Shown here piece after piece: positions 5,273 through 26,472 of a DNA stretch of 35,996 nt. This stretch comes from an uncultured bacterium (lineage in GTDB: Bacteria > Chloroflexota > Limnocylindria > Limnocylindrales > Limnocylindraceae), in contig CAWULR010000003.1 of assembly GCA_963923845.1 (NCBI GenBank), positions 1-35,996 on the forward strand. The letters run 5' to 3'. Position 1 is the first letter of the stretch. The number at the start of each line of letters is the position of its first letter. Position numbers and translations under genes: made by a program. Below the pieces are notes generated by a model. It ran no database searches. It was not told where the DNA came from and saw nothing but the letters and a program-made list of their open reading frames with translations.

Positions 5273-5273
5273 C

Positions 5274-8040: not shown

Positions 8041-8046
8041 CTGGGG

Positions 8047-8052: not shown

Positions 8053-8056
8053 TAGG

Positions 8057-8091: not shown

Positions 8092-8137
8092 GTGTGCTCG
8101 AAGGCGGAGCCCGCGGTCGACCGCGGGGCTCGAACGG

Positions 8138-10648: not shown

Positions 10649-12094
10649 CTAGCCTGCGATCGCCTTCGTCACCGCCTCGATCAAGCTCCCGGGCAGGAGG
10701 CCGAGGGCGAGCGTCCCGACTGCGGCGATGAAGAGCCCCGCCCGCAACAACGGTGCGGTCGCCACCTGAACGTCGGCAGCGCCTGGGTCGCGCATGAAGA
10801 GGTAGACGATGACGCGCAGGTAGTAGAAGGCGGCAACGGCGGCGTTGAGCACGGCGACGATCGCAAGCACGCTTGCGATCCCGCCCGCCTGGACCGCGCT
10901 GAGGATCACATACGCCTTGGCGAAGAAGCCGGCCGTCGGCGGGATTCCGGTGAGGCTCAGCAGGAAGAGTGCGGCGAGCAGCGCCGTCAGCGGATGCTTG
11001 CGGCCGAGACCGGCGAGGTCGGCGAGCTGCACGGTGGCGCCGGGTCGGCCCTGTACCGACGTGAGGAAGGCAAAGGCGCCGATGTTCATCAACGCGTACG
11101 CGGCGGAGTAGAAGAGCACGCCCGAGACGCCGGCGGATTCGCCAGCACCCGCTGCGACGACGCCGACCATGAGATACCCGGTGTGGGCGATCGAAGAGTA
11201 GGCGAGCATGCGCTTGACGTTCGACTGCGTCAGCGCGACGAGGTTTCCGAGCGTCATCGTCGCCGTTGCGAGGACGGCGACGACCGGAATCCATGTCCCG
11301 GCGAGCGGAGCGAGCGCGATCAGGAAGGTCTTGATCATCAAGACGAACGCGCCGATCTTCGGGCCGACAGAGAGGTAGCCGGTGATCGGCGTCGGCGAAC
11401 CCTGGTACGCATCGGGTGTCCAGTAGTGGAAGGGCACCGCCGCGATCTTGAACGCGACGCCCGTCGTCATCAGCGCAAGCCCCATCGCGATCGCCGGCTT
11501 GATCCCGGTGCCGCCTGCGGCAAGTGCCGATGCGACGCCCGCGAGCGACGCGGTTCCCGTCGCGCCCCAGAGCAACACGATCCCGAAGAGCAGGATCGCG
11601 CTCGAAAAGCTTCCGAGCAGGAAGTACTTGACGGCACCCTCGGTGCTCAACGGATCGCGCTTCGCGTATCCGGCGAGGAGGTATCCCGGAATCACCATCA
11701 ACTCGAGTCCGATGAAGAGCGTCACGAGATCGCCCGACGCACCGACCATGATCGCGCCGCAGAGGGCGAAGAGGAGCGTTGCGGCAAACTCGGCGCTCGG
11801 GTATCGCCGCGCTGCAAGGTGATCTGGCGAAACCAGCAGCGTGAGCGCGACCACGGCCGAACCGAGGAGGCCGAGATACGCGACGAACGGTCCGCCGATG
11901 TATGCGCCGCTGAGTGCCGTCTCCACCGTGTCGCCCTGCTGCAGCAGGATCCAACAGGTCGAGCCGAGGCCCGCGAGCGCAACGGCGATCGGCGCATAGC
12001 GGCGGCTCGGAGTCAGGGCATCGCTCAGCAGCACCGCGACCGCGGTGAGCCCGACGACGACGAGCGGTGCGATCGTGATCAGGTCGCCGCTCAT
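10649..12094 (-). CDS. nuoN: NADH-quinone oxidoreductase subunit N
   Basis: LFIGLEL, EGAVKYFLLG, FKIAAVPFHYWTPDAYQG, KRMLAYSSIAHTGY. Confidence 0.97.
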   Translation of the reverse strand: MSGDLITIAPLVVVGLTAVAVLLSDALTPSRRYAPIAVALAGLGSTCWILLQQGDTVETALSGAYIGGPFVAYLGLLGSAVVALTLLVSPDHLAARRYPSAEFAATLLFALCGAIMVGASGDLVTLFIGLELMVIPGYLLAGYAKRDPLSTEGAVKYFLLGSFSSAILLFGIVLLWGATGTASLAGVASALAAGGTGIKPAIAMGLALMTTGVAFKIAAVPFHYWTPDAYQGSPTPITGYLSVGPKIGAFVLMIKTFLIALAPLAGTWIPVVAVLATATMTLGNLVALTQSNVKRMLAYSSIAHTGYLMVGVVAAGAGESAGVSGVLFYSAAYALMNIGAFAFLTSVQGRPGATVQLADLAGLGRKHPLTALLAALFLLSLTGIPPTAGFFAKAYVILSAVQAGGIASVLAIVAVLNAAVAAFYYLRVIVYLFMRDPGAADVQVATAPLLRAGLFIAAVGTLALGLLPGSLIEAVTKAIAG

Positions 12095-13623
12095 CGGATG
12101 GCTCCTCCCGAGGCAAACATGAGGAACTGGGCCACGCTCGCGGCTACGGCGTTGGTGAGCAGCGACGGGAGGATCCCGAAGGCCACGATCATCGCGGCAA
12201 GCGGGGCAAGCGTGGCGATCTCGATCGCGGTGATGTCGGTGAGATGCGTGCCGAGGCCCTTCAGGAAGGGCGAAAGCGGTCCCATGAAGATGCGCTGGTA
12301 CATCCAGAGCAGGTAGACCGCAGCGAGGACCATCACCAGCGTCGCCGCCCCGGCCACCACCGGATTGGCGAGGAAGGCGCCGAGCAGCACGAGGAACTCC
12401 CCGACGAAGCCCGAGAGGCCGGGAAGCCCGACCGAGGCGAAGAGGAAGAAGCCGAAGAGCGCGGCATAGACGGGCGTGCGCGACGCCCAGCCGCCCATCT
12501 TCGCGATCTCACGGTCGTGCGTCCGTTCGTAGCCGATCCCGACCAAGAGGAAGAGTCCGCTCGTGATCAGGCCGTGGTTGAGCATCTGGAGGATCGCTCC
12601 GTCGACTCCCTGCTGGTTGAAGGAGAAGATGCCGAGCGTGACGAAGCCCATGTGGCTGACCGAGCTGTAGGCGATCAGCTTCTTCAAGTCGGTCTGCACG
12701 ATCGCCACGATCGCCCCGTAGATGATGGCGATCACCGAGAGCGCGATGAGAAGCGGGGCGAAGTCGTGCGCCGCCTGCGGGTAGAGCGGGATCGCGAAGC
12801 GGATAAACCCGTAGCCGCCGAGCTTCAACAGCACCCCGGCGAGGATCACGGAGCCCGCGGTCGGCGCCTGCACGTGCGCGTCGGGGAGCCAGGTGTGGAA
12901 CGGGAACATCGGCACCTTGATCGCAAAGGCGAGCGCGAACGCGGCGAAGGCAACGGCCTGGAGCGTCGGGTCGGCGACGGTGCCGCGCAGGGTCAAGAGA
13001 TCGAAGGCCCCGTCCCATGAGCCGGTGGCGACCTGGTGGCTGAACGCCGTCGCAAGGATCGCCACGAGCATGAGCAGCGATCCGACCAGCGTGTAGAGGA
13101 CGAACTTGATCGTGGCGTAGATGCGCTCGGCGCCGCCCCAGATGCCGATGATCAGGTACATCGGAACCAAGACGATCTCCCAGAAGATGTAGAAGAGGAA
13201 GAGGTCGAGCGAGAGGAAGACGCCGAGCATCCCGGTCTCCAAGATGAGGAAGCTGATGTAGTACTCCTTCACGCGGTTCTGGATCGGTCCGAAGCTTGCG
13301 AGGATGCAGATCCAGCTGAGCAGCGTCGTGAGGACGACCAACGCACCGGAGAGTCCGTCGACGCCGAGGTGGTAGGTGATGCCGAAGCTTGGGATCCAGG
13401 AGAGTTGTTCGCTGTACGCGAACTCGGACGAGAAGGTGCGGATCCCCGGAAGCATCAGCAGGCTGAGGACGAAGGTTGCAAACGAGACGAGGAGCGCCGC
13501 GCCGCGGATCAGCGCCGGTCGCGAAGACGGCACGACGCCGAGAAGCAGCGCGCCGGCGAACGGCAAGAGCGTGATGAGCGAGAGGATCGGCAGGCCCGCC
13601 ACCAGCTGCGTCACGTCGCTCAC
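12091..13623 (-). CDS. nuoM: NADH-quinone oxidoreductase subunit M
   Basis: LFLFYIFWE, AIKVPMFPFHTWLPDAHVQAPT, LLKLGGYG, KKLIAYSSVSHMG. GTG at 13623 is coupled to the nuoL stop. Confidence 0.97.
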   Translation of the reverse strand: MSDVTQLVAGLPILSLITLLPFAGALLLGVVPSSRPALIRGAALLVSFATFVLSLLMLPGIRTFSSEFAYSEQLSWIPSFGITYHLGVDGLSGALVVLTTLLSWICILASFGPIQNRVKEYYISFLILETGMLGVFLSLDLFLFYIFWEIVLVPMYLIIGIWGGAERIYATIKFVLYTLVGSLLMLVAILATAFSHQVATGSWDGAFDLLTLRGTVADPTLQAVAFAAFALAFAIKVPMFPFHTWLPDAHVQAPTAGSVILAGVLLKLGGYGFIRFAIPLYPQAAHDFAPLLIALSVIAIIYGAIVAIVQTDLKKLIAYSSVSHMGFVTLGIFSFNQQGVDGAILQMLNHGLITSGLFLLVGIGYERTHDREIAKMGGWASRTPVYAALFGFFLFASVGLPGLSGFVGEFLVLLGAFLANPVVAGAATLVMVLAAVYLLWMYQRIFMGPLSPFLKGLGTHLTDITAIEIATLAPLAAMIVAFGILPSLLTNAVAASVAQFLMFASGGAIR

Positions 13624-15554
13624 GCTCCGATCACCAGGTAGGCGATCGCCATCACGGCGAGGCCGACGGCGATGCCGAACGCGTAGTTCTGCACGCGTCC
13701 GGTCTGGATCTGGCGCAGGCCGCGCCCGCCGCTCGACGCAAGGGCACCGACGCCGTTGACGGCGCCGTCCACGACGCGACGATCGAACCACCAGGCGGCG
13801 TTGGCGACACGCGAACCGAGGCGAACGAAGATCAGGTCGTTCAGGTCGTCGAAGAACCAGCGATTGCGGCTTCCCGTATAGAGCGGCTGGAGGCGCGCGG
13901 TGATCGCGCGGATGCGATCGCCGTTGTCGCTGCGGAAGAGGCGAACGCCGACCACCGTGCCGATCGACGCCACCGTGACGCTCGCGAGCATCAACAGGCC
14001 GTCGATGCCGAAGAGCGTCCACGCTTCGTGTTCGTGCTCGAGGAGGACATTCGCCGTATGGAAGATCGGCTCGAGCCCGTGAACCAAGATGCCGTCGGCG
14101 AAGGGGAGGCCGAGCAGCGCGCCGATACCGACCGACGGGACCGCCAACAGCAGCAGCGGCAGCGTCATCGTCCAGGGCGATTCGTGCACGTGGACGCTCT
14201 CGCTGACGCGGCTGGTCCCCCAGAAGGTGAGGCCCATCAGGCGGAACATGTAGAAGGCGGTCGCGCCGGCGACCACCATCCCGACCAGCCAGACCCAGAC
14301 GTAGCCGAACTTGAACGCCTCGCCGAGGATCTCGTCCTTGGACCAGAAGCCCGCGAGCGGCGGAAGCCCTGCGATCGCGATCGTGCCGATGAGCATCGTG
14401 GCGTAGGTGATGGGAATCTTCTTGGCGAGACCGCCCATCTTCGGCATCTCCTGTTCGCCTTCGACCGCGTGGATGACGGAACCCGATCCGAGGAAGAGCA
14501 GGCCCTTGAAGAAGCCGTGCGTGATCAGGTGGAAGATCGCCGGCACCCACGCACCGACGCCGAGTGCGGCGAACATGTAGCCGAGCTGCGAGAGCGTCGA
14601 GAAGGCGAGGACGCGCTTGATGTCGGTCTGCGTGAACGCGATCGATGCGGCGAAGATCGCCGTGAAGATGCCGATCGCGGCGACGACGAGCATCGCCTCG
14701 TGGCTCGCAGCGAAGAGCGGGCTCATCCTCGCGACGAGATACACGCCGGCGTTGACCATGGTCGCAGCGTGGATGAGCGCGGAGACCGGCGTCGGTCCCT
14801 CCATTGCGTCGGGGAGCCAAACGTGGAGCGGGAACTGCGCCGACTTGCCGACCGCGCCGCAGAAGACGAGGAGGGCGATGAGGGTGGCGGCCGGCCCGGC
14901 GAGCTGCCCAGCGGCCACGCCCTCCAGGATCGTCTGGATGTCCAAGGTGCCGAAGACGGCGACGAGGCCCATCAGGCCGAGGGCGAAGCCGACATCGCCG
15001 ACGCGATTGGTGACGAAGGCCTTCTTCGCCGCAAGGCCCGGCTCGCGCTTCGTGTACCAGAATCCGATCAAGAGATACGAGGAGAGCCCGACGAGCTCCC
15101 ATGCCGCGAAGACGACGAGGAGGTTGCTGGCGAGCACGAGGAGGAGCATCGAGAACATGAAGAGGTTGAGGTAGGCGAAGAATCGCCAGTATCCGGGATC
15201 GTGGCTCATGTAGCCGACGCTGTAGAGGTGCACGAGTGCGCCGACGGTGGTGACGACCAGCAAGAGCGCGCCGGTGAGCGCATCGACGTGGATCCCGATG
15301 TCGAAGCTGAGGCTTCCGGACGCCACCCAGGTGAAGAGCGACGTTGTCGCGCCGTGCTCTCCGAAGTCTCCGAGGAGCGCCGGGATCGCCACGCTCATCG
15401 CGATCCCCCATGTGGCGAAGATCGCGGCGAGTGGAACGAGGTGTGCGGCGCCACCGAGCCGGCGACCGATCGCAGCCGTGAAGGCGAAGCCCACCAGCGG
15501 CAGGATCAACAGGAGCGGCGCGTACCCTGGGAGCAGCAGCTCGTCCACGCTCAC
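13620..15554 (-). CDS. nuoL: NADH-quinone oxidoreductase subunit L
   Basis: WELVGLSSYLLIGFW, KAFVTNRVGD, GKSAQFPLHVWLPDAMEGPTPVSALIHAATMV, C-terminal QTGRVQNY. GTG at 15554 is coupled to the nuoK stop. Confidence 0.97.
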   Translation of the reverse strand: MSVDELLLPGYAPLLLILPLVGFAFTAAIGRRLGGAAHLVPLAAIFATWGIAMSVAIPALLGDFGEHGATTSLFTWVASGSLSFDIGIHVDALTGALLLVVTTVGALVHLYSVGYMSHDPGYWRFFAYLNLFMFSMLLLVLASNLLVVFAAWELVGLSSYLLIGFWYTKREPGLAAKKAFVTNRVGDVGFALGLMGLVAVFGTLDIQTILEGVAAGQLAGPAATLIALLVFCGAVGKSAQFPLHVWLPDAMEGPTPVSALIHAATMVNAGVYLVARMSPLFAASHEAMLVVAAIGIFTAIFAASIAFTQTDIKRVLAFSTLSQLGYMFAALGVGAWVPAIFHLITHGFFKGLLFLGSGSVIHAVEGEQEMPKMGGLAKKIPITYATMLIGTIAIAGLPPLAGFWSKDEILGEAFKFGYVWVWLVGMVVAGATAFYMFRLMGLTFWGTSRVSESVHVHESPWTMTLPLLLLAVPSVGIGALLGLPFADGILVHGLEPIFHTANVLLEHEHEAWTLFGIDGLLMLASVTVASIGTVVGVRLFRSDNGDRIRAITARLQPLYTGSRNRWFFDDLNDLIFVRLGSRVANAAWWFDRRVVDGAVNGVGALASSGGRGLRQIQTGRVQNYAFGIAVGLAVMAIAYLVIGA

Positions 15555-15871
15555 TGCCTCATCGTGTCGTACTCGTCGACCAGCGGTGTCTTCCTGTTTC
15601 TGTAGATGGCGATGACGATGGCGAGCCCGACCGTCGCCTCGGCGGCAGCGACGGCGACGATGAGCAGGGCGAAGGCGATCCCCTCGCCGGCGAGTGCCGG
15701 AATGAACGCGCCGAACGCGACGGCCGAGAGGTTCACCGCGTTCAGCATCAGCTCGATGCTCATCAGCATGCTGATCGCATTGCGGCGGGCCAGGAAGCCG
15801 AAGGCGCCGATGGAGAAGAGCAGCCCGGCCAGGACCAGGTACGGCTCCAGGTGACCGGCGATCTGGCTCAC
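15551..15871 (-). CDS. nuoK: NADH-quinone oxidoreductase subunit K
   Basis: RRNAISMLMSIELMLNAVNL and AAAEATVGLAI. Confidence 0.97.
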   Translation of the reverse strand: MSQIAGHLEPYLVLAGLLFSIGAFGFLARRNAISMLMSIELMLNAVNLSAVAFGAFIPALAGEGIAFALLIVAVAAAEATVGLAIVIAIYRNRKTPLVDEYDTMRQ

Positions 15872-16440
15872 CCCGCCTCCTCGTCCCCGTCGAGGCTGGG
15901 CTGGTCCGCGCGGCGAGCAGAGGCAAGGTAGATCCCGCCGATCACGGCGGCGAGGATGAGGACGCTGACCACCTCGAAGGCGAGAAGGTACGGGCCGAAG
16001 AGCTCGGCGGCGGCACCGGTCGTCCCCTGCGCTGCGGGCGTGTCATCGAACGTCGTCGACGACCAGTCGTTGGCGCCGAGCGTGATCGCGAAGATGATCG
16101 AGAGCAGCGCCGCGATCGCAGCCGCCGGGAGCGCCTGCGTCTGGAAGGTGAGCCTCGTCGGTGCCGCCTTCGACTGCGTCAGCATGATCGCGAAGAGGAT
16201 CAGCACGCTGATCGCTCCGATGTAGACGAGCACCTGGGCGCCCGCGAGGATCGCCGCGCCGAGCATCACGTAGATCCCCGCCAACGCGCCGAGCGCGAGG
16301 ATCAGCATCAGGCCGTTGCGGATGATGTCGCGGCCGAGCACCACGCCGAGCGCCGCAGCCACCGTGACGCCGCCGAGCGCGACGAAGAGTGCGTCCGCCC
16401 ACGTGATGCCGATGAACGGGAGCGTGTCGGGCAGCGGCAT
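15868..16440 (-). CDS. nuoJ: NADH-quinone oxidoreductase subunit J
   Basis: AQVLVYIGAISVLILFAIML and YLLAFEVVSVLILAAVIG. Confidence 0.95.
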   Translation of the reverse strand: MPLPDTLPFIGITWADALFVALGGVTVAAALGVVLGRDIIRNGLMLILALGALAGIYVMLGAAILAGAQVLVYIGAISVLILFAIMLTQSKAAPTRLTFQTQALPAAAIAALLSIIFAITLGANDWSSTTFDDTPAAQGTTGAAAELFGPYLLAFEVVSVLILAAVIGGIYLASARRADQPSLDGDEEAG

Positions 16441-16443
16441 GGA

Positions 16444-18999
16444 CTACTTCCCGCGCAGGTTCGACGGCAGGACCGGAAGCGCCCGCGCAGGATCGTGGCG
16501 TCGCCCGGCGACGGTGTTCTCCCAGTTGCTCTCGCCGCGGATGAACGTAGCCTCCGAGGTGCGCTCGATCTTCGCGAGTGCGATCAAGTCGATCATCGGC
16601 TCGCTGCGATCCGTGTGCGCGAGTTCGAAATCGAAGCCGCTGCGAAGCGCGTCGTACGGACATGCGTCGACGCAGATGCCGCAGAGGATGCAGCGCGACT
16701 CGTCGACTTCGTACTTGGTGAGGATGCGCGGCTTCGGCATGAGTGCGCCGGTCGGGCACGTCTCTGCGCATCGCCCGCACGAGACGCACGGCGACTCGTT
16801 GAGGCTCATGTCGAGCGGCGTGGTGACGAGCGTGTCGAATCCGGTGCGCATGAAGTCGTAGCAGGCGGCGCCCACGACCTCGGCGCAGACGTTGGCGCAG
16901 CGGCCGCAGTCGATGCATCGCGATGGCTCGCGCAGGATGAAGGCGTGCGAATCGTCGCGCACGTAGTCGTGGTTTGCGCCCGTCCAGCGGTTCTCCGTGA
17001 TCGAGCGGAAGCCGGCACCGTGGCGATGCTCCTTCTCGAGGCTCTTCAGCGTGGTGCCGTACTCGATGCCGAGTCGGCGCAGGTCGCAGAAGCCGATCGC
17101 CTCGCAGGTGCACTGGAGGCAGCGCGTGCTCTCCGCCATCGCCTCTGACTTGCTGTAGGGGATCTCGTACTGGATGTAGTCGTGCTTCCGCTCGTCGGCG
17201 TGGAGCGCCTTGAGTCGGAGCCGCGGCTCTTTCGTCTCGCCGGTGAACGGCACGATGCTGAGGAACTCGGGCTGCGGCTCGGCCAGTGTCTGGCGCGTGC
17301 GGATCTCGCCGAGATCGAGCCCCTTCAGATAGGCGTCGGCGGCGTAGGCGCAGCGACGACCGTCGGCGATCGAGGCGACGACGGTCGTGGCGCCGTTGCG
17401 CACGTCGCCACAGCCGAAGACGCCGTCGCGGCCGGTCTGGAAGGTGACGGCGTCCGCCTTCAGTCGACCGTTCTTCGTGGCGCTCACCCCGTCGGCGCCG
17501 ACGCTCGCCCAGGTCATGTCCGGCCCCTGACCGATCGCCTTGAGGATGCGGTCGCACTCGATGATGAACTCCGTCCCCGGAGCCGGCTCGGGTCGGCGCC
17601 GACCCGATGCGTCTGGCGCGCCGAGCTGCATGCGGATGAACTCGAGGCCCTTGACGCGGTTCTTCTCGTCCACGATGACGCGCGTCGGACCCGCCTGGAA
17701 GATGGCGCGGGCCCCCTCCTCGATCATCTCGTGCACTTCGTCCGCGGCCGGCATGTCCTTCATGTCGCGTCGGTAGACGAGCGTCACCTCCTTTGCGCCG
17801 AGGCGGATGCTCGTGCGCGAGCAGTCCATCGAGGTGTAGCCGCCGCCGACCACCACCACGCGGCTCCCTTCGTGGTTCGGATACTCGAGGCCGAGCGCGG
17901 CGGTGTGCAGATAGTCGAGGCCGTCGATCACCCCTTCGGCGTCTTCGCCCGGGATGCCGAGATCGTTCGTGTCGTAGCAGCCGATCGCCACGATCACCGC
18001 GTCGTAGCCCTGCGCCTTGAGGTCGGCGGTGGTGAAGTCGCGCCCGAGCATCTTGCCGCACTCGAATCGGCCGCCGAGTCGCGTGATCGACTGGTACTCG
18101 CCGTCGAGCACCTCGATCTTCGGCAGGCGGTACTGCGGGATTCCGTACCGGAGCATGCCGCCTGGCTCCGGATCCTTCTCGAAGATCGTGACGTCATGGC
18201 CGGCAACCAAGAGGTAGTAGGCGGCGGATGCACCGGCGGGACCCGAACCGATCACGGCGACGCGCTTCCCGGTCTTCGGCTGCAGCTCGAACGGAAGCGG
18301 CGGATCGATGTTCTCGTCCCACATCGCCTTCAGCACCTGATCGCCGGCGTAGCGGTGGCTGTCGCGGATCGCGATCGCTTCGTCCACTTCGTCGCGGCGG
18401 CAGTGGTCCTCGCACGGCGCCGGGCAGACGCGTCCGAGGATGCTCGGGAACGGAATCGTGCGCTTGAAGATGCGCGCCGACTCGCGGAACTGCGATTCGG
18501 CGTTCGCCTTCAAGAAGCCCGGAATGTCGATGTGGCTCGGGCACTTGTTCTGGCAGGGCGGCAGGCAGTAGGCGTTGTGGTCGCTGAAGATCAGCTCCAG
18601 GTTGGTGCGACGGATCTCGCGCAGCCGATCGGTCTGCGTCGCGATCACCGTCTCCGGCTCCGCCTTCGCAGAGCAGCTGATCAACGGCGCGTCGCACCCC
18701 TCGACGTCGACGACGCACATGCGGCAGGCGCCGAACCCCGGCAGCTTCGGGTCGTAGCAGAGCGTCGGCACCTCGATGCCGTTCGCGCGGCAGACCTCGA
18801 GGATCGTCTGTCCTTCGAACGCCTCGAGTCGGTTTCCGTCGATCTCAACGTAGAACGTCGGGGTGCGCTGCGGTCGCTGAGGGCTGCGCGTCGAGAGGAG
18901 TCGTTCGAGCGCCTGGCTCTCCAGTGCCTGGTTCTCGCTCGCGGCTGCGTGCTCGCTCGGCGCAAGGTTGCCGCTCGGTCGCTCCATCAGGCCGGCCAT
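16444..18999 (-). CDS. Chimeric Fe-S flavoprotein: NuoG-type N-terminal Fe-S module, GltD/NfnB-like FAD-NAD(P)H domain, 2x[4Fe-4S], and C-terminal half of NuoI
   Basis: [2Fe-2S] IEVPTLC...GACRMC...C; GltD motifs PPCQNKCP, LGRVCPAPCE, GSGPAG, GGMLRYGIP, GGGYTSMD, VYRR; RCIDCGRCANVC and CVSCGRCAETCPTGAL; NuoI-like tail YEVDESRCILCGICVDACPYDAL..GFDFELA. Confidence 0.9.
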   Translation of the reverse strand: MAGLMERPSGNLAPSEHAAASENQALESQALERLLSTRSPQRPQRTPTFYVEIDGNRLEAFEGQTILEVCRANGIEVPTLCYDPKLPGFGACRMCVVDVEGCDAPLISCSAKAEPETVIATQTDRLREIRRTNLELIFSDHNAYCLPPCQNKCPSHIDIPGFLKANAESQFRESARIFKRTIPFPSILGRVCPAPCEDHCRRDEVDEAIAIRDSHRYAGDQVLKAMWDENIDPPLPFELQPKTGKRVAVIGSGPAGASAAYYLLVAGHDVTIFEKDPEPGGMLRYGIPQYRLPKIEVLDGEYQSITRLGGRFECGKMLGRDFTTADLKAQGYDAVIVAIGCYDTNDLGIPGEDAEGVIDGLDYLHTAALGLEYPNHEGSRVVVVGGGYTSMDCSRTSIRLGAKEVTLVYRRDMKDMPAADEVHEMIEEGARAIFQAGPTRVIVDEKNRVKGLEFIRMQLGAPDASGRRRPEPAPGTEFIIECDRILKAIGQGPDMTWASVGADGVSATKNGRLKADAVTFQTGRDGVFGCGDVRNGATTVVASIADGRRCAYAADAYLKGLDLGEIRTRQTLAEPQPEFLSIVPFTGETKEPRLRLKALHADERKHDYIQYEIPYSKSEAMAESTRCLQCTCEAIGFCDLRRLGIEYGTTLKSLEKEHRHGAGFRSITENRWTGANHDYVRDDSHAFILREPSRCIDCGRCANVCAEVVGAACYDFMRTGFDTLVTTPLDMSLNESPCVSCGRCAETCPTGALMPKPRILTKYEVDESRCILCGICVDACPYDALRSGFDFELAHTDRSEPMIDLIALAKIERTSEATFIRGESNWENTVAGRRHDPARALPVLPSNLRGK

Positions 19000-20264
19000 T
19001 ATTTGCTCCGTCCCGCTACTGCACCGCTCGTTTCAGCGGCGACTCCGGTTGGCACGAACTCTCGCTCGAAGTATCGCATCCCCGTCAGGAGCGGGCTCGG
19101 TGTCAATCGCTCGTGCGCGCAGAGCGCGCTGTCGGCGACATCGGCGGCGAGTGCATGGAGCCTCTGCACATCGTTCGGGCCGGCGAGCCCGTCGACGAAG
19201 CGTTGTCCGATCTCGGCGAGGCGGCGAGTGCCGATACGGCACGGGATCGTCTTCCCGCACGCTTCGTCGGCGCACCATCGGGTCAACAGCGCAGCAAGCT
19301 CCGGGATGGCGGTGCCCTGGTCGACGGCGAGGAGGGCGCCCGAGCCGATATGGGCACCGACGGCGGCCAGGCCGCGGCCGCTGTAGGGCGTGCTCGCCAG
19401 CAGGTTCGCGGGGACGAAACCGCCAGACGGCCCACCGACGAGCAGCGCCTTGATCGTGGCGCCCTTCGTGGGGCCACCCGCTGCGGCGACGATCTCGGCG
19501 AGCGTCGTGCCGGTCGGAACCTCCATCACGCCGACGCTGGCGAGCGGACCGCCGACCTGCACGAGTGCGGTGCCGGGCTCCGCCGGGTCGCCGATCTCCG
19601 CGAATGCGCGGGCTCCGTTGCCGACGATCCACGTCACCGCTGCGAGCGTCGCCACGTTGTTGACGGCGGTCGGCTTCCCCAGATACCCGACGGTCGATGG
19701 ATACGGTGGTGTCTGTTCAGGTTGACCCCGTCGACCGGCAAGCGCCTTGAGCAGCACCGTCTCCTCGCCGATCATGCTCGAGCCCTGCAACGGCCGCACG
19801 CTCATCGTCAGCTCTCGGCCGCTCCCGAGCAGATCGGAGCCGAACACGCCGTCTCGCTCGGCGCCCTGGATGATCGCCTCGAGGCGACGGATCGCGTCCG
19901 TGTACTCCGCACGCACCGCGATGAAGGCGTGGCGCGCACCGACGGCGAGCGCAGCGATCGCGAGGCCCTCGACGACCGCCTGCGCGTTCTTCTCGAGAAG
20001 GAGTCGGTTCGTGAACGCGGCGGGGTCCGACTCGTACCCGTTGGCAACGGCGTATCGCTCGTCGGCGTCGCTCGCGGCGGTGATCCGCCACTTCTCGCCG
20101 GTGAGGAATCCGCCGCCGCCCTTGCCGCGCAGGCCCGCGTCGATGAGCGTCTGGAGCGTCGACACAGATCCGGCGGAGATGGCGCTGCGCAGCGCCGCCC
20201 ACGGCGTCGCCGGCGGCGACATGAGCAGCTGCGACCAGCCTTTCGGTGCGGCGATCAACTTCAT
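18999..20264 (-). CDS. nuoF: NuoF-like flavoprotein subunit with degenerate motifs
   Basis: GLRGKGGGGFLTGEKW, GEETVLL, PPYP...GKPTAVNNVAT, GGPSGG, EACGKTIPCRIG. ATG at 20264 overlaps the upstream TGA; its TAA overlaps the next ATG. Confidence 0.88.
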   Translation of the reverse strand: MKLIAAPKGWSQLLMSPPATPWAALRSAISAGSVSTLQTLIDAGLRGKGGGGFLTGEKWRITAASDADERYAVANGYESDPAAFTNRLLLEKNAQAVVEGLAIAALAVGARHAFIAVRAEYTDAIRRLEAIIQGAERDGVFGSDLLGSGRELTMSVRPLQGSSMIGEETVLLKALAGRRGQPEQTPPYPSTVGYLGKPTAVNNVATLAAVTWIVGNGARAFAEIGDPAEPGTALVQVGGPLASVGVMEVPTGTTLAEIVAAAGGPTKGATIKALLVGGPSGGFVPANLLASTPYSGRGLAAVGAHIGSGALLAVDQGTAIPELAALLTRWCADEACGKTIPCRIGTRRLAEIGQRFVDGLAGPNDVQRLHALAADVADSALCAHERLTPSPLLTGMRYFEREFVPTGVAAETSGAVAGRSK

Positions 20265-21082
20265 GCGGCGTATCTCCCCGCAAGCGCCGCCGCCCACGTC
20301 TCGGCGTTGCGACTCGACAGATCGCGTTGCGGTTCTCCGTCGATCACCACGAGCGGCGACGGTGCGTCGGGAAGGTGCGTCGGCAGCGCCTCGAGTCGGA
20401 GGTTGCTCCATGGAATCGCGTGGCCGAACTCGGTGCCGAATTCGTATGAGAGCGTCCCGATCACGCGACCCGCGCCTGCGACCAGGCAGTTGGCGCAGCG
20501 ACACACGGCGATCGAGCGGTTTCGCCCCGGCTCGAAGGTGAGGTGCTTGTAGAAGGTCGCCGTGCCGTAGACCATCGCGTACCAGGCGCCGGTGGCGCGA
20601 CTGATGCGCTTCAGCGCGTCGACGGGGAGATAACCGTACGCGGCCTGCACCGCTTCGAGGATCTGCAGCATGTGGTGCGGGTCGTAGTCGGCGCTCTCCA
20701 GCGCCGCCTCGACGGGACGAAGGTCGATCGCGCTCGCCTGTGACGCGGCCGCGTCGGAGACGGTTCGACCGGAGCGGCGCATCGCAGATTCCTCGCGACG
20801 CTCGGCGTACTGCTCTGCAGGACCCCAGTGCACCGCGTAGCGCCCTTTGGTGTCCGTGCCGCCCATGTCGATGCACTCGATCGGACACGCCTGCGCGCAC
20901 TGGAAACAGGTCTCGCACTTCAGCGTTCCGCGCTCGTCGGTGACGAGCTCGAGTCGACCTCGGTTTCGCGGGGCGATGTCCGGCTTCGCCTCCGGATACA
21001 TCACCGTCTTCTTCGGCTGGAAGAAGCGCGTCAGCGTGAGGCCCATTCCGCGGATGATTCCCGAGCCTGGAATCCGTGCCAT
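20261..21082 (-). CDS. Fusion of the NuoI N-terminal half to a NuoE-like domain
   Basis: NuoI-like GMGLTLTRFFQPKKTVMYPE...RNRGR...KCETCFQCAQACPIECI with only one Cys motif, then NuoE-like LQILEAVQAAYGYLP...VYGTATFY...VCRCANC..AGA. AGGAGG Shine-Dalgarno upstream. Confidence 0.9.
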   Translation of the reverse strand: MARIPGSGIIRGMGLTLTRFFQPKKTVMYPEAKPDIAPRNRGRLELVTDERGTLKCETCFQCAQACPIECIDMGGTDTKGRYAVHWGPAEQYAERREESAMRRSGRTVSDAAASQASAIDLRPVEAALESADYDPHHMLQILEAVQAAYGYLPVDALKRISRATGAWYAMVYGTATFYKHLTFEPGRNRSIAVCRCANCLVAGAGRVIGTLSYEFGTEFGHAIPWSNLRLEALPTHLPDAPSPLVVIDGEPQRDLSSRNAETWAAALAGRYAA

Positions 21083-21091: not shown

Positions 21092-22429
21092 TTATGCGGT
21101 CAGCAGCACGGCGAGCGCCGTGGCGAAGAGGTTGAGCAGCGACGCAGGGAGGAGCCACTTCCAGGCAAAGCCCATCAGCTGGTCGATCCGCGCGCGCGGA
21201 AGGGTGCCGCGCATCCAGACGAAGATGAAGATCAACGTGAACGTCTTCAGGAGGAAGAAGACGAGGTCGGCGACCGGGGGGAGCATCGCCCAGGCCCAGG
21301 CGCCGACGACGGCGGTGGAGAGGGCGCCGAAGATGAGGAAGCCGGCGAGGAGCGCCTGCCAGGCCTTGATACGGGCGCTGATCGCGTAGATCGGGAGGCC
21401 GATCGCCAACGTCCCGAGGATCGGCGCGACGCCGGCGAGGATCGGGAGGAGGATGCCGAGGCTTCCGAGGTCGACGGCGATCTCGGGGTGGAACGGCAGG
21501 TCGATCGGCGCATTGGAGCCGCCCAGGAAGAGCGCGGAGAAGAGCGCCGAGACGATGAAGACGTTGACGTACTCGGCGAAGAAGAAGAAGCCGAAGCGCA
21601 TCCCGGAGTACTCGGTCGCAAACCCGGCGACGATCTCCTGGTCCGCCTCCGTGTTGTCGAACGGCGTGCGATTCGCCTCTGCGGTGATCGCGATGAAGAA
21701 GATGATCGCGGCGAGCGGCTGGCGGAAGATGAACCAGTCGAGCAGCGATCCACCCTGCGCCTCGACGATCTTCGGCAGCGACAGCGTGCCGGTGAGGATG
21801 ATGATGCCGACGACCGACAGCGTCAGCGGAATCTCGTAGCTGATCGCCTGCGCCGCGGCGCGAATCCCGCCGAGGAGCGAGTACTTGTTGAACGACGACC
21901 AGCCGGCCATCATCAGGCCCACCACGCCGAGGCCGCCGATCGCAAAGAAGTAGAGCAGCCCGAACTCGAGACCGGCGCTCGTGAGATCGGGGGCGAACGG
22001 GATCACCATCACCGTCATGAAGCTCGCGAGATAGACGACGACCGGCGCGAGCGTGAAGACCGGAACGTCGACGCTCGGCGGCGTGAAGTCCTCTTTCATC
22101 AGCACCTTGAGGCCGTGGACGACGCTCATCACGGCGCCGGCGGGACCGATGCGGTCCGGTCCGATGCGCAGGTTCATCAACGCGATGATCTTCATCTCCA
22201 TGTAGATCAGCAGGAACGCGACGGGAACCGTCACCAAGAAGGTGATCACGGACGCAGCAAGGAAGCGGACGATCGGCAGGTTTGCGGCGATCGTCGCGCC
22301 GATGAACGGTCCTGCGACGATCAAGAGTGCGGTCAGCGCCGCGCCGCCGATCGACAGGATCGGCAACAGGATGGCGAGCGCCCGCCCGCCCGGCGTCAGC
22401 CGCGACCAGACCGCCTGCGCGCCGCTCAC
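21092..22429 (-). CDS. nuoH: NADH-quinone oxidoreductase subunit H (enlarged)
   Basis: RIGPDR, KED, NKYSLLGGIRAAAQAISYE, AEANRTPFD, TEYSG, WMRGTLPRARIDQLM. GTG at 22429 is coupled to the nuoD stop. Confidence 0.96.
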   Translation of the reverse strand: MSGAQAVWSRLTPGGRALAILLPILSIGGAALTALLIVAGPFIGATIAANLPIVRFLAASVITFLVTVPVAFLLIYMEMKIIALMNLRIGPDRIGPAGAVMSVVHGLKVLMKEDFTPPSVDVPVFTLAPVVVYLASFMTVMVIPFAPDLTSAGLEFGLLYFFAIGGLGVVGLMMAGWSSFNKYSLLGGIRAAAQAISYEIPLTLSVVGIIILTGTLSLPKIVEAQGGSLLDWFIFRQPLAAIIFFIAITAEANRTPFDNTEADQEIVAGFATEYSGMRFGFFFFAEYVNVFIVSALFSALFLGGSNAPIDLPFHPEIAVDLGSLGILLPILAGVAPILGTLAIGLPIYAISARIKAWQALLAGFLIFGALSTAVVGAWAWAMLPPVADLVFFLLKTFTLIFIFVWMRGTLPRARIDQLMGFAWKWLLPASLLNLFATALAVLLTA

Positions 22430-23640
22430 TTGTCCACTCCGCCCATGACCGGATCGAGGCTCGCCATGACCGCCATGGTGTCGGCGATGAGGTTGCCGCG
22501 CGTCAGCGGCCCGACAAGCTGCAGGTGGACGAACGACGGATCGTGGATGCGCATCCTGAACGGCTGGTCGGTGCCATCCGAGATCGCGTAGACGCCGTAG
22601 GCGCCGCGCGGGCCCTCCACCGCACCGAAGGCGCGCCCCGGTCGCGGTCGCAGCAGTCTCGGCAGCTTCGCCATGACCGGTCCGTCCGGCATCTCGTGCA
22701 GCACCTGGTCGATGATGCGAATCGATTCGCGGATCTCGTCGATTCGGACCATGTAGCGCGCGAGCGAGTCGCCCTCCTCGCGCGTCGGAATGTCGAACTC
22801 GAGCTCTGGGTACACGAGATAGGGGCGGTCGCGTCGCAGGTCGAACGGAACGCCGGTTGCGCGAAGGTTCGGACCGGTGACGCCCATGCGCAGTGCGGTC
22901 GCCCTGTCCAGGGTGCCGAGGCCGCGCGTGCGGCGCACGAAGAGCTCGTTCTCGTTGATGAGGCCGGTGTTCGAGTCGATCTGCGCCGCAGCGCGACTCA
23001 TCCAGTTGCCGAGGCGGCTCATGAACTCGTGGTTCAGGTCGCCGTTGACGCCGCCGATGCGGTAGTAGTTGTAGAGCAGCTTCTGCCCCGTCAGCGCCGC
23101 GAGCATGTCCACGATCTCGTCGCGCTCGATGAAGGACCAGAGGATCGGCGTGATCCCGCCGAGGTCGAGCGCCATCCAGCCTTGGAAGAGGGTGTGGCTG
23201 GCGATGCGGTTCAGCTCCATCGTGAGGACGCGGATGTACTGGGCGCGGCGTGGAACCTCCACGTCCATGAGCTTCTCGAAGGCGGCGACGGGGGCGGCTT
23301 CGCAGAAGAGGGAGGCGACGTACTCGAGCGGATCCGTGTAGCAGATCGCCTGGTGGTAGTCGGCGTTCTCGCAGAGCTTCTCCACGCCGCGGTGCAGGTA
23401 GCCGAGCACGGGGTCGAGATCGACGACCTGCTCGCCGTTCACCTTGACGACGATGCGCAGCACGCCGTGCGTCGACGGGTGCTGCGGCCCCATGTTGACG
23501 AACATCTCGCCATCGCGAAGGTTGAGGAACTCTGCCTGGCGCTCCGTCTGCGCCGTCGGCGCCGGCTCGTACCACTCCGACGCGGCAGGGATCGCGATCC
23601 GCGGATCGTCGAGCGACGGGCGCGTCTGCTGCGTGGTCAC
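22426..23640 (-). CDS. nuoD: NADH-quinone oxidoreductase subunit D
   Basis: NMGPQHPSTHGVLR, GYLHRGVEK, ELNRIASH, VEGPRG, SLDPVMGGVDK. Confidence 0.97.
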   Translation of the reverse strand: MTTQQTRPSLDDPRIAIPAASEWYEPAPTAQTERQAEFLNLRDGEMFVNMGPQHPSTHGVLRIVVKVNGEQVVDLDPVLGYLHRGVEKLCENADYHQAICYTDPLEYVASLFCEAAPVAAFEKLMDVEVPRRAQYIRVLTMELNRIASHTLFQGWMALDLGGITPILWSFIERDEIVDMLAALTGQKLLYNYYRIGGVNGDLNHEFMSRLGNWMSRAAAQIDSNTGLINENELFVRRTRGLGTLDRATALRMGVTGPNLRATGVPFDLRRDRPYLVYPELEFDIPTREEGDSLARYMVRIDEIRESIRIIDQVLHEMPDGPVMAKLPRLLRPRPGRAFGAVEGPRGAYGVYAISDGTDQPFRMRIHDPSFVHLQLVGPLTRGNLIADTMAVMASLDPVMGGVDK

Positions 23641-23642
23641 CG

Positions 23643-24194
23643 CTACGCCCCTGCGCTCTTCCTGACCACGGTCGCGTGCGTGGCGTCTGCCGGCGTGCCG
23701 ACACGCTCCATGTTGCGCACGCCCGCTGCAGGCGATCGCGAAGCATCGTCGGCGAGGTGGAAGTCCTTTCGAAGCGGATGGCTGACGTAGTCGTCCGGCA
23801 TGTAGATGCGACGTAGATCGCGATTCCCCTCGAAGACGATCCCGAACATGTCGTACGCCTCGCGCTCCATCCACTCGGCGCCGGGCCAGAGCGAGACGAG
23901 CGAGTTCACGCGCGGTGCGTTGCGATCGACGCCGGCAACGATCACCCGCAACCAGTCGCTGCTCGAGAACGATGCGAGATGGTAGACGATCTGCATCTCC
24001 TCGCCGGTGTCCACGCCGCAGAGATCCATCAGGATCTCGAATGCGAATCGCGGCTCGTCGTGCAGCGCGCGGAGCACGGGGATCGCATCGGCGATGCCGA
24101 CGCGGATCTCCGTCTCGTCGAAGCGTTGGCGCACCGGCGCACGGAGGGTCTCGCCGAATCGGTCGTGCAGCGCGGCGGCGAGGGCGCGATCCAT
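23643..24194 (-). CDS. nuoC: NADH-quinone oxidoreductase subunit C
   Basis: DLCGVD and WMEREAYDMFGIVFEGNRDLRRIYMPDDYVSHPLRKDF. ATG at 24194 overlaps the nuoB TGA. Confidence 0.96.
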   Translation of the reverse strand: MDRALAAALHDRFGETLRAPVRQRFDETEIRVGIADAIPVLRALHDEPRFAFEILMDLCGVDTGEEMQIVYHLASFSSSDWLRVIVAGVDRNAPRVNSLVSLWPGAEWMEREAYDMFGIVFEGNRDLRRIYMPDDYVSHPLRKDFHLADDASRSPAAGVRNMERVGTPADATHATVVRKSAGA

Positions 24195-24865
24195 CAGATG
24201 CCGTCCGGAACCGTCGGTCCGATGGCCCGCTCGGGCCAGTGGCCGCGACGATCCTTGATGAGCTGTTGCAGCTTCATCATTCCGTAGATGAGTCCCTCGG
24301 GCCGCGGCGGACAGCCGGGGATGTAGACGTCGACCGGCATGACGCGGTCGATCCCCTGCACCACCGAATAGCTGCGCTTGTAGCGACCGCCGGAACAGGT
24401 GCAGTCGCCCATCGCAACAAGCCACTTCGGTTCTGGCATCTGCTCCCAGAGTCGGATCAGCGGTTCCGCCATCTTGGTTGTGAGCGTTCCGGCGACGATC
24501 AGCACATCTGCCTGTCGCGGCGATGCGCGGAACGGGAACATCCCCCACCGGTCGATGTCGTTCTTCGGTGTCGCGGTCGACATCATCTCGATCGCGCAGC
24601 AGGCGAGTCCGGAGAGGAGCGGCCAGAGACTGTTGGCGCGAATCAGATCCAGGACGATGTCGGCGGTGGTGGGGATTGCGCCGAGCGCGCCGCTCCAGCG
24701 CGCGTCGTCGACGCGTCCGTCGCCGGTCGCGTCATAGCGCGCCAGCTCCAAGTTCGGATGCTGCGCGAGGGGGATGCCGCCGTACGCTCGCGGATCGTCG
24801 GTCGTCCAGAGCGTGTTCTTCGCCACGATCGGCGCCTGGAGCGCGCGCTTCGGATCGCGCGTCAT
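24194..24865 (-). CDS. nuoB: NADH-quinone oxidoreductase subunit B
   Basis: [39 protein letters not shown] at 24865 overlaps the nuoA TGA. Confidence 0.97.
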
Positions 24866-25218
24866 CGCCACGAGAGCACCCCTTTGCGCCAGGCGTAGCC
24901 GAGGCCGACGAGCAGGACGCCGATGAAGATCGCCATGGAGACCAGCCCCTCGACCAGGAGGGCCTGGAAGTTGAGTGCCCAGATGTAGATGAAGACGATC
25001 TCGACGTCGAAGGCGACGAAGAGGAGGGCATAGAGATAGAAGGAGAGGCCGAAGCGCCCGTGGGTGTCGCCGTAGGTGTCGATGCCCGACTCGTAGGGGA
25101 CCTGCTTGCCGCGGCTCCCTCGCGTGCGGTGGGAGATCAACCAGGCGATGCCGATCGTCAGGAAGACGAAGGAGACACCCGCGCCGGCGAAGCCGAGGAC
25201 GTACCAGAGTCCGTTCAT
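24862..25218 (-). CDS. nuoA: NADH-quinone oxidoreductase subunit A
   Basis: [35 protein letters not shown] Shine-Dalgarno. Confidence 0.97.
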
Positions 25219-25287: not shown

Positions 25288-25293
25288 ATTCTA
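25288..25293 (-). promoter_or_regulatory. Candidate -10 element for the nuo operon
   Basis: Minus-strand TAGAAT overlapping the TAG stop of the upstream methyltransferase, about 70 nt before the nuoA ATG. Confidence 0.45.
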
Positions 25294-26472
25294 GACGAGG
25301 GGGCGGTTCGGAGCCGCTGCGCCGGGGAGCGGATTGGCACGATCGGCGATACGCCGTCGCCGCTCGGGAGCACCGCTGGCGAAGAGTTCGACGGCGAAAC
25401 CTCCCATGCCACGTGGATTCATCAGGTGGGCGAGGGCCGACCGCAGGGCGATCGCCCCTTCGAGCGTCGCGTCGGGCCCGCGCCGCACGCGGTCGAGTTC
25501 GCTCTCCAGCCCGGCCCCCGCGATGAACGCCGCCTGGTTCGTCTGGGCCACCGGCTCGAGTCCGGCCGCAGCTGCGGCGCGGCGCAGCGCGGTGAGGTCC
25601 ACATGGGCGGTGAGGTCGCGCTCACCGGGTTCGCTCAGCAGGTCCGCCGTCGCTCGATGACCCTGATAGGCGAGCGCTGTCCCCGCCATCCGGCTCCTCG
25701 CATCGCGGAGCAGCGCGCCATCGCGTCCGTAGTCGATCACCACCACCAGACCGTCGCTCACCCGTGTCGTCACCTCGCGGAACCACGGCTCGATGGCGAA
25801 GCAGGCCTCCGCCAGCTGTCCCTCGGCGAGTGGCGCACCGAAGCGATCGAGGACGCGGCGCGCGCGATCCGAATCGAGTGCTCGTTCGACCCAGATTCGC
25901 GTCGTGCGGTCGTCGGCGAGACCGACGCACCGCTCGGCGAGTCCCGACGGTGCGCCGCTTCGTCCCACGAAGATGTCGAACGGAAGCGCATCGAGGTACT
26001 CGTTGGCGATGACGATGCCCGCGACCGGCGGCGCGCCGTCGGCGACGAGCGACGGCGAACCGCGCTCCTGCACTCTGCCGACGGCGCTGCGCAGCTCGTC
26101 GCTGCGGTGCGCGTTGACGTCGATCGGCTGGATCTCGAGCGCGTCGACGAGCGGCGATCGGTCGCGCCGCAGCTGCGCGATCACCGCGAGCACGAGTGCA
26201 CCGGATCCGGCGCCATACTCGACCCAGCGAAACCGTCGAGGTTCGCCGAGCCGGCGCCACACCTCGGTCGCCAGGCGCGAGAGCGCAGAGCCGAGCAGCG
26301 TGTGCAGCTCGGGCGCCGTGATGAAATCGCCCTCCCGACCTGCGCGCACCTGACGCGTGACGTAGTAGCCGAGACCGGGTTCGGTGAGCGCGCGCTCCAT
26401 GAATCGGGAGAACGAGATCGCTCCGCGCTCCGCGATCTCTGCGTCGATGCGCGCCTCGAGTTCGCTGCTCAT
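25291..26472 (-). CDS. SAM-dependent methyltransferase, MidA/NDUFAF7 family
   Basis: [66 protein letters not shown]. Confidence 0.93.

Follow-up and report, generated by a model that had tools for sequence, protein, structure and literature searches.

A complex I operon of Limnocylindria with a split NuoI, whose halves are joined to separate subunits of an inserted transhydrogenase-like module

We describe a nuo operon from an uncultured bacterium of the Chloroflexota (Limnocylindria; Limnocylindrales; Limnocylindraceae) that has no intact nuoI between nuoH and nuoJ; two halves of NuoI are carried by two separate genes, each half fused to a part of an input module encoded inside the interrupted gene. 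The operon lies on a stretch of 35,996 nucleotides, here called the window (NCBI GenBank assembly GCA_963923845.1, contig CAWULR010000003.1, positions 1 to 35,996), which is a complete 36-kb contig of a 1.02 Mb genome estimated to be about 82% complete. Canonical complex I has 14 subunits, NuoA to NuoN, and its structure is available from Thermus thermophilus, E. coli, Paracoccus, Mycobacterium and mitochondria. NuoI is among its most conserved core subunits and carries two clusters of the main electron wire. The split arrangement is real and not an artefact, and the two halves are the only NuoI sequence in the genomes of this class that were searched. We consider it likely that this is an old variant of complex I in which NuoI would be rebuilt in trans, tethering a non-bifurcating module with FMN and FAD to the quinone module.

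The operon is tightly packed on the minus strand, in the order nuoA-B-C-D-H, ORF1, ORF2, ORF3, nuoJ-K-L-M-N. ORF1 (20261-21082, 273 aa), ORF2 (18999-20264, 421 aa) and ORF3 (16444-18999, 851 aa) are all open. The TAA stop of nuoH is followed by GGAGGAGCG and then by the ATG of ORF1, with a GGAGG box upstream of that start; ORF1 overlaps ORF2 in ATGA, ORF2 overlaps ORF3 in TAATG, and 3 nt lie between the TAG stop of ORF3 and the ATG of nuoJ. ORF1 is composed of the N-terminal half of NuoI (I_N), a linker and a NuoE/HydC-like domain. ORF3 consists of a NuoG/HoxU-type 2Fe-2S domain, a GltD/NfnB-like insert, a CxxCxC element, two 4Fe-4S motifs (A and B), and the C-terminal half of NuoI (I_C) with a third motif (C). 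The parts, with the matches that define them, are as follows.

20837-21082, minus strand: ORF1 residues 1-82, NuoI N-half (I_N), with the motif C56, C59, C62, C66 (NuoI models, PDB, hhalign)
20708-20836, minus strand: ORF1 residues 83-125, conserved linker (family alignment)
20264-20707, minus strand: ORF1 residues 126-273, NuoE/HydC-like domain (PF01257, 64.6 bits)
18999-20264, minus strand: ORF2, NuoF-like FMN/NADH subunit (PF01512, PF10589)
18631-18849, minus strand: ORF3 residues 51-123, NuoG/HoxU-type 2Fe-2S domain (PF13510, 60.6 bits)
17320-18567, minus strand: ORF3 residues 145-560, GltD/NfnB-like insert (PF14691, PF07992; NF009454, 543 bits)
16735-17319, minus strand: ORF3 residues 561-755, CxxCxC, motif A (C695-C705, 16885-16917) and motif B (C738-C748, 16756-16788), aligning to 9bov_A and 8oh5_C
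16447-16734, minus strand: ORF3 residues 756-851, NuoI C-half (I_C), with motif C (C770-C780, 16660-16692), a NuoI-type segment and a family-specific tail (TIGR01971, PDB, hhalign)

The first 82 residues of ORF1 match NuoI-type models only. Residues 9-81 correspond to positions 13-86 of the 180 of NF004536 (59.4 bits) and to positions ~1-66 of the 121 of TIGR01971, with one CxxCxxCxxxCP motif within, and a PDB search with I_N returned NuoI or its complex I homologues TYKY/NDUFS8/NUIM in 31 of 35 matches and chloroplast NdhI in 2 more. At the far end of the insert, ORF3 residues 758-804 match positions 71-117 of TIGR01971. The ORF3 tail scanned alone had NuoI/NdhI-type models as its 10 best NCBIfam matches (best 45.9 bits), against 25.9 bits for the generic FdxA; the C-terminal motif is thus NuoI-specific, which answers a doubt raised in a preliminary description of the region, that it might resemble generic ferredoxins just as well. 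Compared with the PDB, the tail matched NuoI chains at up to 50.9 bits in a single stretch, and polyferredoxins outscored these only through summed repeats, each of at most 29.9 bits (two alignments). In alignments to an intact Chloroflexota NuoI from an H-I-J context, I_N residues 5-86 fall on residues 15-101 (hhalign probability 99.7) and residues 3-57 of the ORF3 tail on 96-150 (99.2). The halves thus cover complementary parts both of the NuoI model and of an intact Chloroflexota NuoI, and because of these alignments the break can be placed in the loop between the two cluster motifs of NuoI, so that removing ~16735-20836 would yield an ordinary nuoH-nuoI-nuoJ. The best TIGR01971 matches in the genome are two partial ones in two genes (48.7 bits over positions 1-66 and 44.7 bits over 71-117; cut-off 113.05), and the NuoI hallmarks, namely the N-terminal segment, both motifs and the segment after motif 2, are found only in ORF1 and ORF3 together. 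The preliminary description, which was made from the sequence letters, had read the region in much the same way: nuoI not intact between nuoH and nuoJ, a gene after nuoH that starts as NuoI with one motif and becomes NuoE-like, a gene before nuoJ that ends in the NuoI C-half, and three open genes coupled by ATGA and TAATG. The gene and domain matches (NF004536 and TIGR01971 with PF01257 for the first fusion, TIGR01971 positions 71-117 for the second) bear this out, and its proposal that deleting about 16740-20850 would restore nuoH-nuoI-nuoJ holds with slightly adjusted bounds.

The linker between I_N and the NuoE-like domain (ORF1 residues 83-125) is conserved and peculiar to the ORF1 family, with G87, E90, E94, R95, A100, R102 and G105 invariant; among 1.84 billion representative proteins, 31 matched ORF1 residues 1-125 at E<=1e-30. 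ORF3 ends in a conserved tail (residues ~804-851, 16447-16590; consensus ...EPMIDLIA...TYIRRERDW...GR...LPxLP) that is lengthened by Gly/His/Asn-rich repeats in many relatives. One locus considered as a source of intact NuoI (L117) turned out on alignment to be another N-half fusion and was left out of the reference alignment.

Recurrence in other genomes was extensive. An ORF1 match was found in 40 of 41 relatives, at full length in most genomes of the genus, and in a collection of species genomes 510 of 599 candidate stretches encode a relative. Within the reach of the contigs, the order D-H-I_N::E-F-G::GltD::I_C-J-K holds in each of the 80 loci kept. In a frame check of 93 loci, 64 carried both fusions, each in one frame, 25 were cut by contig ends or broken in frame, and 4 were too diverged or broken to be read; an intact nuoI between H and J was found in none of the 93. 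The 64 in-frame loci come from independent assemblies, several of which consist of one to few contigs, single-contig genomes included. Moreover, DNA contigs from two further studies cover 30 of 30 bins of the region, and one of them spans 19765-20884, across the junction internal to ORF1. Two joints seen in single low-depth contigs (19770/20105 and 20220/21096), with sides of 21-22 letters, were ignored. Separately, single DNA contigs in two runs diverge from the window at 16701, 19319 and 19812, and these probably represent related strains or other genes with similar conserved motifs.

The fusions are also under purifying constraint throughout, and in both NuoI halves it is strong. The four cysteines of I_N are kept in 88 of 88 sequences, and those of I_C, together with every cluster cysteine of ORF3, in 64 of 64, so that all eight NuoI cysteines are invariant. 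Within the genus, the ratio of nonsynonymous to synonymous substitution rates (dN/dS) ranges from 0.02 to 0.14 overall: 0.022 for the I_C core, ~0.04 for the three ORF3 parts that precede it (0.038 for the GltD-like insert), 0.063 for I_N, 0.10 for the NuoE-like part and 0.14 for ORF2. An assembly chimera or a decaying pseudogene might be suspected from the metagenome-type contig and the incomplete genome from which the window comes; given the same frames in 64 loci of independent assemblies, the contigs of two other studies and the low dN/dS, we count this explanation as refuted. No NuoI match above the family cut-off was found in the window's own genome or in five relatives of 92-95% completeness, assembled into 2 to 20 contigs, and likewise no intact NuoI was found in the searched genomes of class families f1 to f3, including the family f3 genome G073. 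The NuoF-type gene is single in each of five genomes of the genus (5/5), and in each it is the ORF2 of the operon. Two ways in which the preliminary description might have failed, chimeric junctions and an intact nuoI elsewhere with halves under relaxed selection, can hence be set aside.

The arrangement, correctly recognised in the window's genome by the preliminary description, is not peculiar to it and is widespread in Chloroflexota. Public records of Candidatus Limnocylindrus and of Limnocylindrales metagenome-assembled genomes (MAGs) share up to 95% residue identity with ORF1, and the nearest Atlas clusters are Chloroflexota. Within the class, 191 of 201 sampled genomes, eight unpublished genomes among them, match ORF1 (7/7 in family f1, 59/60 in f2, 58/66 in f3, 65/66 in f4 and 1/1 in f5). 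These tallies are not to be taken as plain presence or absence of a full ORF1, since members of f3 and f4 match partly and the split was seen there on reading the loci. Family f4 shows the operon in the same unbroken form. G073 of family f3 carries A-C-H-J-K-L-M-N, where H immediately precedes J, at one locus and B-D-[I_N::E']-F-[G::GltD::I_C] at another; the two loci are exactly complementary, and the genome has one NuoH. I_N and I_C thus travel with NuoB and NuoD, while the membrane genes can sit elsewhere. A homologue of the Methyltransf_28 gene that lies upstream of nuoA in the window follows directly after the split cluster in a family f3 genome (L103 8977-10095).

Outside the class, a diverged form of ORF1 was found in 34 of 301 genomes of the phylum (E<=1e-25, with a diverged member as query), concentrated in four families (21/21 in f25, 6/6 in f29, 5/5 in f10 and 1/2 in f20, with 1/81 in all others). 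The phylum-wide search with ORF1 itself, which matched 270 of the 301, was rejected as a count of the split form, since it mostly returned ordinary NuoE or NuoI. The usual arrangement in these genomes is a four-gene cluster, NuoB-[N-half::E']-F-[G::GltD::C-half]. Two further nuo loci were seen in the genomes that were examined: a canonical operon of 14 genes, whose NuoI is intact (133-144 bits), and an additional A-C-D-H set without B and I; G369 (L111, L122, L124) combines all three, as do G259, G337 and G281, and in G369 no J-N genes lie near the extra set. In an unrooted NuoD tree of 20 sequences, the 2 canonical NuoD, which as the sole outgroup are two sequences only, stand on a long branch apart from the 18 split-linked NuoD (support 100/100). 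Close homologues of the f25-type protein are recorded under the names of Ktedonobacteraceae MAGs, Dictyobacter alpinus and D. arantiisoli, with hypothetical protein or ferredoxin as their annotation. Public names for the ORF1-3 proteins are 'NuoE', 'FAD-dependent oxidoreductase', 'formate dehydrogenase major subunit', 'ferredoxin' and 'hypothetical protein'; the architecture is unrecognised in public annotation, although one JGI name includes 'NADH:ubiquinone oxidoreductase subunit I'. Open frames of ~700 aa had hinted at a NuoE-NuoF fusion, which was rejected: E and F share one frame in 0 of 93 loci.

What was inserted into nuoI differs from an ordinary nuoE-F-G set. The NuoE-like domain is recognised by PF01257 over ORF1 residues 126-260 and keeps C194, C196 and C199, whereas other residues stand where the 2Fe-2S site would have its second cysteine pair (alignment to 7p5h_C and column counts); the preliminary assignment to NuoE is therefore upheld as to family, with two of the four cluster cysteines lost. 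In several genera of a sister family, ORF1 homologues (L106, L107 and L108; 238, 219 and 186 aa) have no thioredoxin-like half and end after the helical N-terminal NuoE-like part, which suggests that this domain is an adaptor rather than a cluster carrier. In alignments, ORF2 corresponds to residues 142-510 of 9bov_B, a chain of 584 aa, and to residues 142-509 of 8oh5_B. Among solved structures it comes nearest to HydB, NfnB and StnB, of which it represents the central part only, without the additional N-terminal 2Fe-2S and C-terminal 2x[4Fe-4S] domains of HydB/StnB. What we take to be the FMN/NADH and N3 motifs of NuoF are unequally preserved in this subunit: all 80 sequences compared have GEET, and most of the glycine-rich loop is kept, while the N3 motif reads CGKTIPC instead of CxxCxxC. 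Its second cysteine is Thr in 71 of the 80 sequences and remains Cys, the canonical residue, in 3, and a canonical Asp is replaced by Tyr in 75. Near N3 (residues 331-342 and 382-384 were considered), 54 of the 80 sequences keep C331 and 71 keep H384, and either could replace the lost N3 ligand.

The large subunit points to the same relatives. ORF3 aligns to residues 6-700 of the 1178-residue 9bov_A (E 1.4e-165) and to 8oh5_C, which is StnC (E 2.1e-142), in both cases through motifs A and B. The 9bov_A alignment ends at residue 700; ORF3 has no FdhF-like domain, and the NuoI C-half stands in its place. The NuoG model TIGR01973 matches ORF3 residues 51-185 only (83 bits, cut-off 470), the large molybdopterin-enzyme-like C-terminal domain being absent. 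The GltD/NfnB-like insert comprises two 4Fe-4S sites, an FAD fold and an NAD(P)H Rossmann fold (PDB matches 9bov_A, 8oh5_C and 4ylf_B). Its family consensus keeps a GxGxxA pattern, with Ser at the final position in the window; the available text of PMC7483475 associates GxGxxA with NADP(H). Best PDB matches of ORF1, ORF2 and ORF3 all include chains of 9bov, 8oh5 and 9n5u. In the accessible parts of two publications on Stn (PMC7483475, PMC10482914), NADPH reduces the FAD of the GltD domain and electrons pass through clusters to the FMN of StnB, bifurcation needs the 2Fe-2S cluster of StnA and the extra cluster domains of StnB, and the two clusters toward the FdhF-like domain form a dead-end branch. 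A third source, likewise available in part, defines the bifurcation site as FMN with a 4Fe-4S and a 2Fe-2S cluster (PMC12018979). Judging from these alignments, the inserted module is closest to the Stn/Nfn-Bfu transhydrogenases, without their bifurcation parts and FdhF-like domain. The earlier proposal of a nuoE-F-G/GltD cassette inside nuoI is accordingly retained as to the insertion and revised as to its identity.

These features suggest how such an enzyme might be built. A three-gene module related to Stn/Nfn-Bfu would have been inserted into nuoI between its cluster motifs, with both nuoI ends staying in frame as fusions. We infer that ORF1 residues 1-82 and ORF3 residues 756-810 fold in trans into a two-cluster ferredoxin (N6a/N6b) beside NuoB and NuoD, to which I_N would supply the NuoI-specific N-terminal segment and I_C the NuoI-specific segment after motif 2. 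The split NuoI would then act as a double covalent tether, substituting for docking by the absent C-terminal domain of NuoG: one fusion would tie the NuoE-like adaptor, and through it the NuoF-like subunit, to the quinone module, and the other would tie the ORF3 cluster chain to it. Electrons could enter at the NuoF-like FMN (from NADH), at the GltD FAD, or at both. The donor to the FAD is probably NADPH, because the family consensus keeps the GxGxxA pattern. Electrons from FMN and FAD would share the ORF3 cluster chain, exit by the cluster pair that corresponds to the dead-end branch of Stn, and pass through the rebuilt NuoI to N2 and quinone, presumably with proton pumping. The module is predicted to be non-bifurcating, in keeping with the missing terminal domains of ORF2 and the loss of two of four cluster cysteines in the NuoE-like domain. 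A gene for the proton-translocating transhydrogenase PntB occurs in 5 of 5 Limnocylindrus-type genomes of ~1.0-1.4 Mb (G000:C2:13031-14410 and four others), and because these genomes encode PntB the GltD site would not be needed merely for transhydrogenation.

Several observations weigh against this explanation. Evidence of expression consists only of RNA-library contigs (16335-16623, 20105-20310 and 20687-20941), possibly contaminated with DNA; they overlie both ends of the split, and parts of the region without such cover were not counted as evidence. The activity of ORF2 is uncertain, given its dN/dS (the least constrained part), the Thr at N3 and the Tyr in place of a canonical Asp. In genomes outside the class, the membrane-arm genes are located away from the split cluster, which there coexists with a canonical complex I, so that the split form may not always belong to a pumping complex. 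Most directly, the four motifs have two conceivable pairings, A with B and C with the N-half, or B with C and A with the N-half. When a 13-residue gap is allowed, hhalign aligns B and C in cis with both motifs of an intact NuoI (probability 99.2), the Pfam family Fer4_7 spans B and C (ORF3 residues 738-784), and another pairing is possible because the 21-residue spacing would suit a small ferredoxin fold. Outside the class, moreover, NuoI model positions 41-111 match across B and C in one stretch (~56 bits), and an extra invariant cysteine of ORF3, C713, could complete a cluster at motif A. B and C would on this alternative form a two-cluster ferredoxin in cis, with I_N pairing with motif A or carrying an incomplete cluster; even then the chains might share a ferredoxin domain, which would however be something other than a rebuilt NuoI. 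We regard this as unlikely. The pairing of A with B and of C with the N-half is favoured because A, B and the intervening segment align closely with the solved Stn/Bfu large-subunit cluster pair (9bov_A/8oh5_C), so that no partner remains for motif C within ORF3, and because NuoI-specific flanks are present only on motif C and the ORF1 motif. The likeness of motif B to NuoI motif 1 is generic, whereas motif C and its flanks are NuoI-specific, and pairing B with C would deprive the I_N cysteines, kept in every sequence, of the partner that gene order suggests. With either pairing there must be one ferredoxin-type domain shared by two chains, or four invariant cysteines without a role.

Two further alternatives concern what the module does. 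ORF1-3, perhaps with NuoB, might constitute a separate, soluble NAD(P)H oxidoreductase or transhydrogenase in which the NuoI-derived ends are docking relics, with the co-transcribed 11-subunit complex I-like enzyme taking electrons from another donor. The closest solved relatives are indeed soluble transhydrogenases, and in several families B-[I_N::E']-F-[G::GltD::I_C] stands alone among unrelated genes. It would, however, leave the membrane enzyme without any NuoI; the NuoB gene travels with the split NuoI, the partner loci (A-C-D-H or A-C-H-J-N) lack B and I, and the NuoI-specific N-terminal segment of I_N is conserved, all of which makes a separate enzyme quite improbable. Alternatively, homology to the bifurcating Stn/Nfn-Bfu enzymes and the presence of two flavin sites on one iron-sulfur chain could be taken to indicate bifurcating or confurcating coupling of NADH, NADPH and quinone, or an enzyme that mainly makes NADPH by reverse electron flow. 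This we consider very improbable, as the small-subunit 2Fe-2S site and both terminal cluster domains of the flavoprotein, whose roles are described in the available portions of PMC10482914 and PMC12018979, are absent or degraded, and PntB is encoded in all five genomes of the genus. A NuoI rebuilt in trans, connecting a non-bifurcating module to the quinone module, remains the reading that we prefer. The preliminary description had likewise proposed a ferredoxin reconstituted from two polypeptides that links input and quinone modules, and of the conditions it set for refuting this, the three that were examined did not hold.

The ten remaining nuo genes of the operon are ordinary. All match NCBIfam Nuo models, and the seven matches of nuoB, D, H, K, L, M and N exceed the curated cut-off. 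The starts of nuoC, nuoD and nuoH are not fixed.

24862-25218, minus strand: nuoA (NCBIfam NuoA, 92.8 bits)
24194-24871, minus strand: nuoB (NF005012, 220.7 bits, cut-off 116), with tandem CC, GDC and PGCPP motifs, which we take to be the N2 ligands
23643-24200, minus strand: nuoC, start not fixed (TIGR01961, 118.5 bits)
22426-23640, minus strand: nuoD, start not fixed (NF004739, 420.9 bits, cut-off 360)
21092-22420, minus strand: nuoH, start not fixed (NF004741, 310.9 bits, cut-off 305)
15868-16440, minus strand: nuoJ (NF005163, 106.7 bits)
15551-15871, minus strand: nuoK (NF004320, 104.8 bits, cut-off 57)
13620-15557, minus strand: nuoL (NF005141, 708.7 bits, above cut-off)
12091-13623, minus strand: nuoM (TIGR01972, 591.3 bits, above cut-off)
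10649-12094, minus strand: nuoN (TIGR01770, 388.4 bits, above cut-off)

Immediately upstream of nuoA, a Methyltransf_28 gene (PF02636, 141.9 bits) occupies 25291-26472 on the minus strand; this family includes NDUFAF7, an assembly factor of mitochondrial complex I. Elsewhere in the window, 4079-9355 holds lipid and sugar genes (a GT4 glycosyltransferase, a PHP-domain protein, a lipid A-type acyltransferase and a myo-inositol-1-phosphate synthase) in a run that looks like a phosphatidylinositol-mannoside-type cluster, adjoined by two unscanned ORFs (9456-10115 and 10112-10528).

A wider scenario, which we hold tentatively and rate at slightly below an even chance, is that a complex I lineage of Chloroflexota swapped the classical NADH module for a non-bifurcating, two-flavin Stn-type module held by the cut halves of NuoI, the result being the only complex I of Limnocylindria and a second enzyme in Ktedonobacteria and other families. 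Such an enzyme would pump protons, would feed both NADH and NADPH to the quinone pool, and would provide the first natural example of a complex I core iron-sulfur subunit made up of two chains. A natural split NuoI serving as covalent tether would show how the ancient core of 11 subunits can exchange its electron-input modules, would connect the evolution of complex I with the Stn/Nfn-Bfu family, and may add direct NADPH oxidation to a respiratory proton pump. The class Limnocylindria is abundant in freshwater and soil, and the split form is the only complex I found in the searched genomes of its abundant, genome-streamlined freshwater lineage, which bears on NADH/NADPH balance there. Because of current annotation names, a survey that tallies Nuo subunits across genomes would record NuoI and NuoG as absent from these organisms. 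The question could be tested in culture, because close homologues are recorded under the names of cultured Dictyobacter species, if those mark carriers of the cluster.

The split-NuoI arrangement appears to be undescribed. A full-text literature search, which covered articles without their supplements and not all of PubMed Central, found no split NuoI, no such fusions and no account of a Limnocylindria complex I, nor did the available part of a phylogenomic survey (PMC4453560); the preliminary description had likewise known of no such architecture. Like the canonical complex, the enzyme described here has ten ordinary core genes, the sequence content of NuoI, and an input module of NuoE/F/G type. 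Unlike the canonical complex, it has NuoI in two polypeptides, a NuoG-like subunit in which the large C-terminal domain is absent and a GltD flavoprotein is inserted, and a NuoE-like domain that has lost two cluster cysteines; moreover, the input genes lie inside nuoI, whereas in the canonical operon they lie between nuoD and nuoH. The StnABC/NfnABC (Bfu) transhydrogenases (PDB 8oh5, 9bov, 9n5u; PMC7483475, PMC10482914, PMC12018979), as far as the accessible parts of these papers describe them, are built of the same three subunit types. The module described here differs from them in that the NuoI C-half replaces the FdhF-like C-terminal domain, the flavoprotein has no terminal cluster domains, the small subunit is joined to the N-half of NuoI and is missing some of its cluster ligands, and the genes are located within a nuo operon.

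Other respiratory enzymes offer partial parallels, each cited here from the portions of the sources that were available. Cyanobacterial NDH-1 and archaeal Fpo (PMC3144371, PMC11238625) likewise combine an A-B-C-D-H-I-J-K-L-M-N core with a lineage-specific donor module; in those enzymes NuoI/NdhI/FpoI is kept intact and the donor module is attached non-covalently. In Mbx-like operons of Thermotoga and proteobacteria, a gltD-related flavoprotein occupies the place of NuoI (PMC4758237), so that there, as here, a membrane enzyme related to complex I is linked, where NuoI would sit, to an NAD(P)(H) flavoprotein of GltD type; there, however, the flavoprotein replaces NuoI in an enzyme of Mrp/Mbx type, and the available text describes neither a split NuoI nor NuoE/F/G parts. 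Fusions between complex I subunits are known as well, namely NuoCD and NuoBCD (PMC4453560, PMC4758237), and these show, like the present case, that fusion between neighbouring subunits is tolerated. Whereas NuoCD and NuoBCD are joined end to end, in the operon described here one subunit is cut and each of its halves is fused to a subunit of another module.

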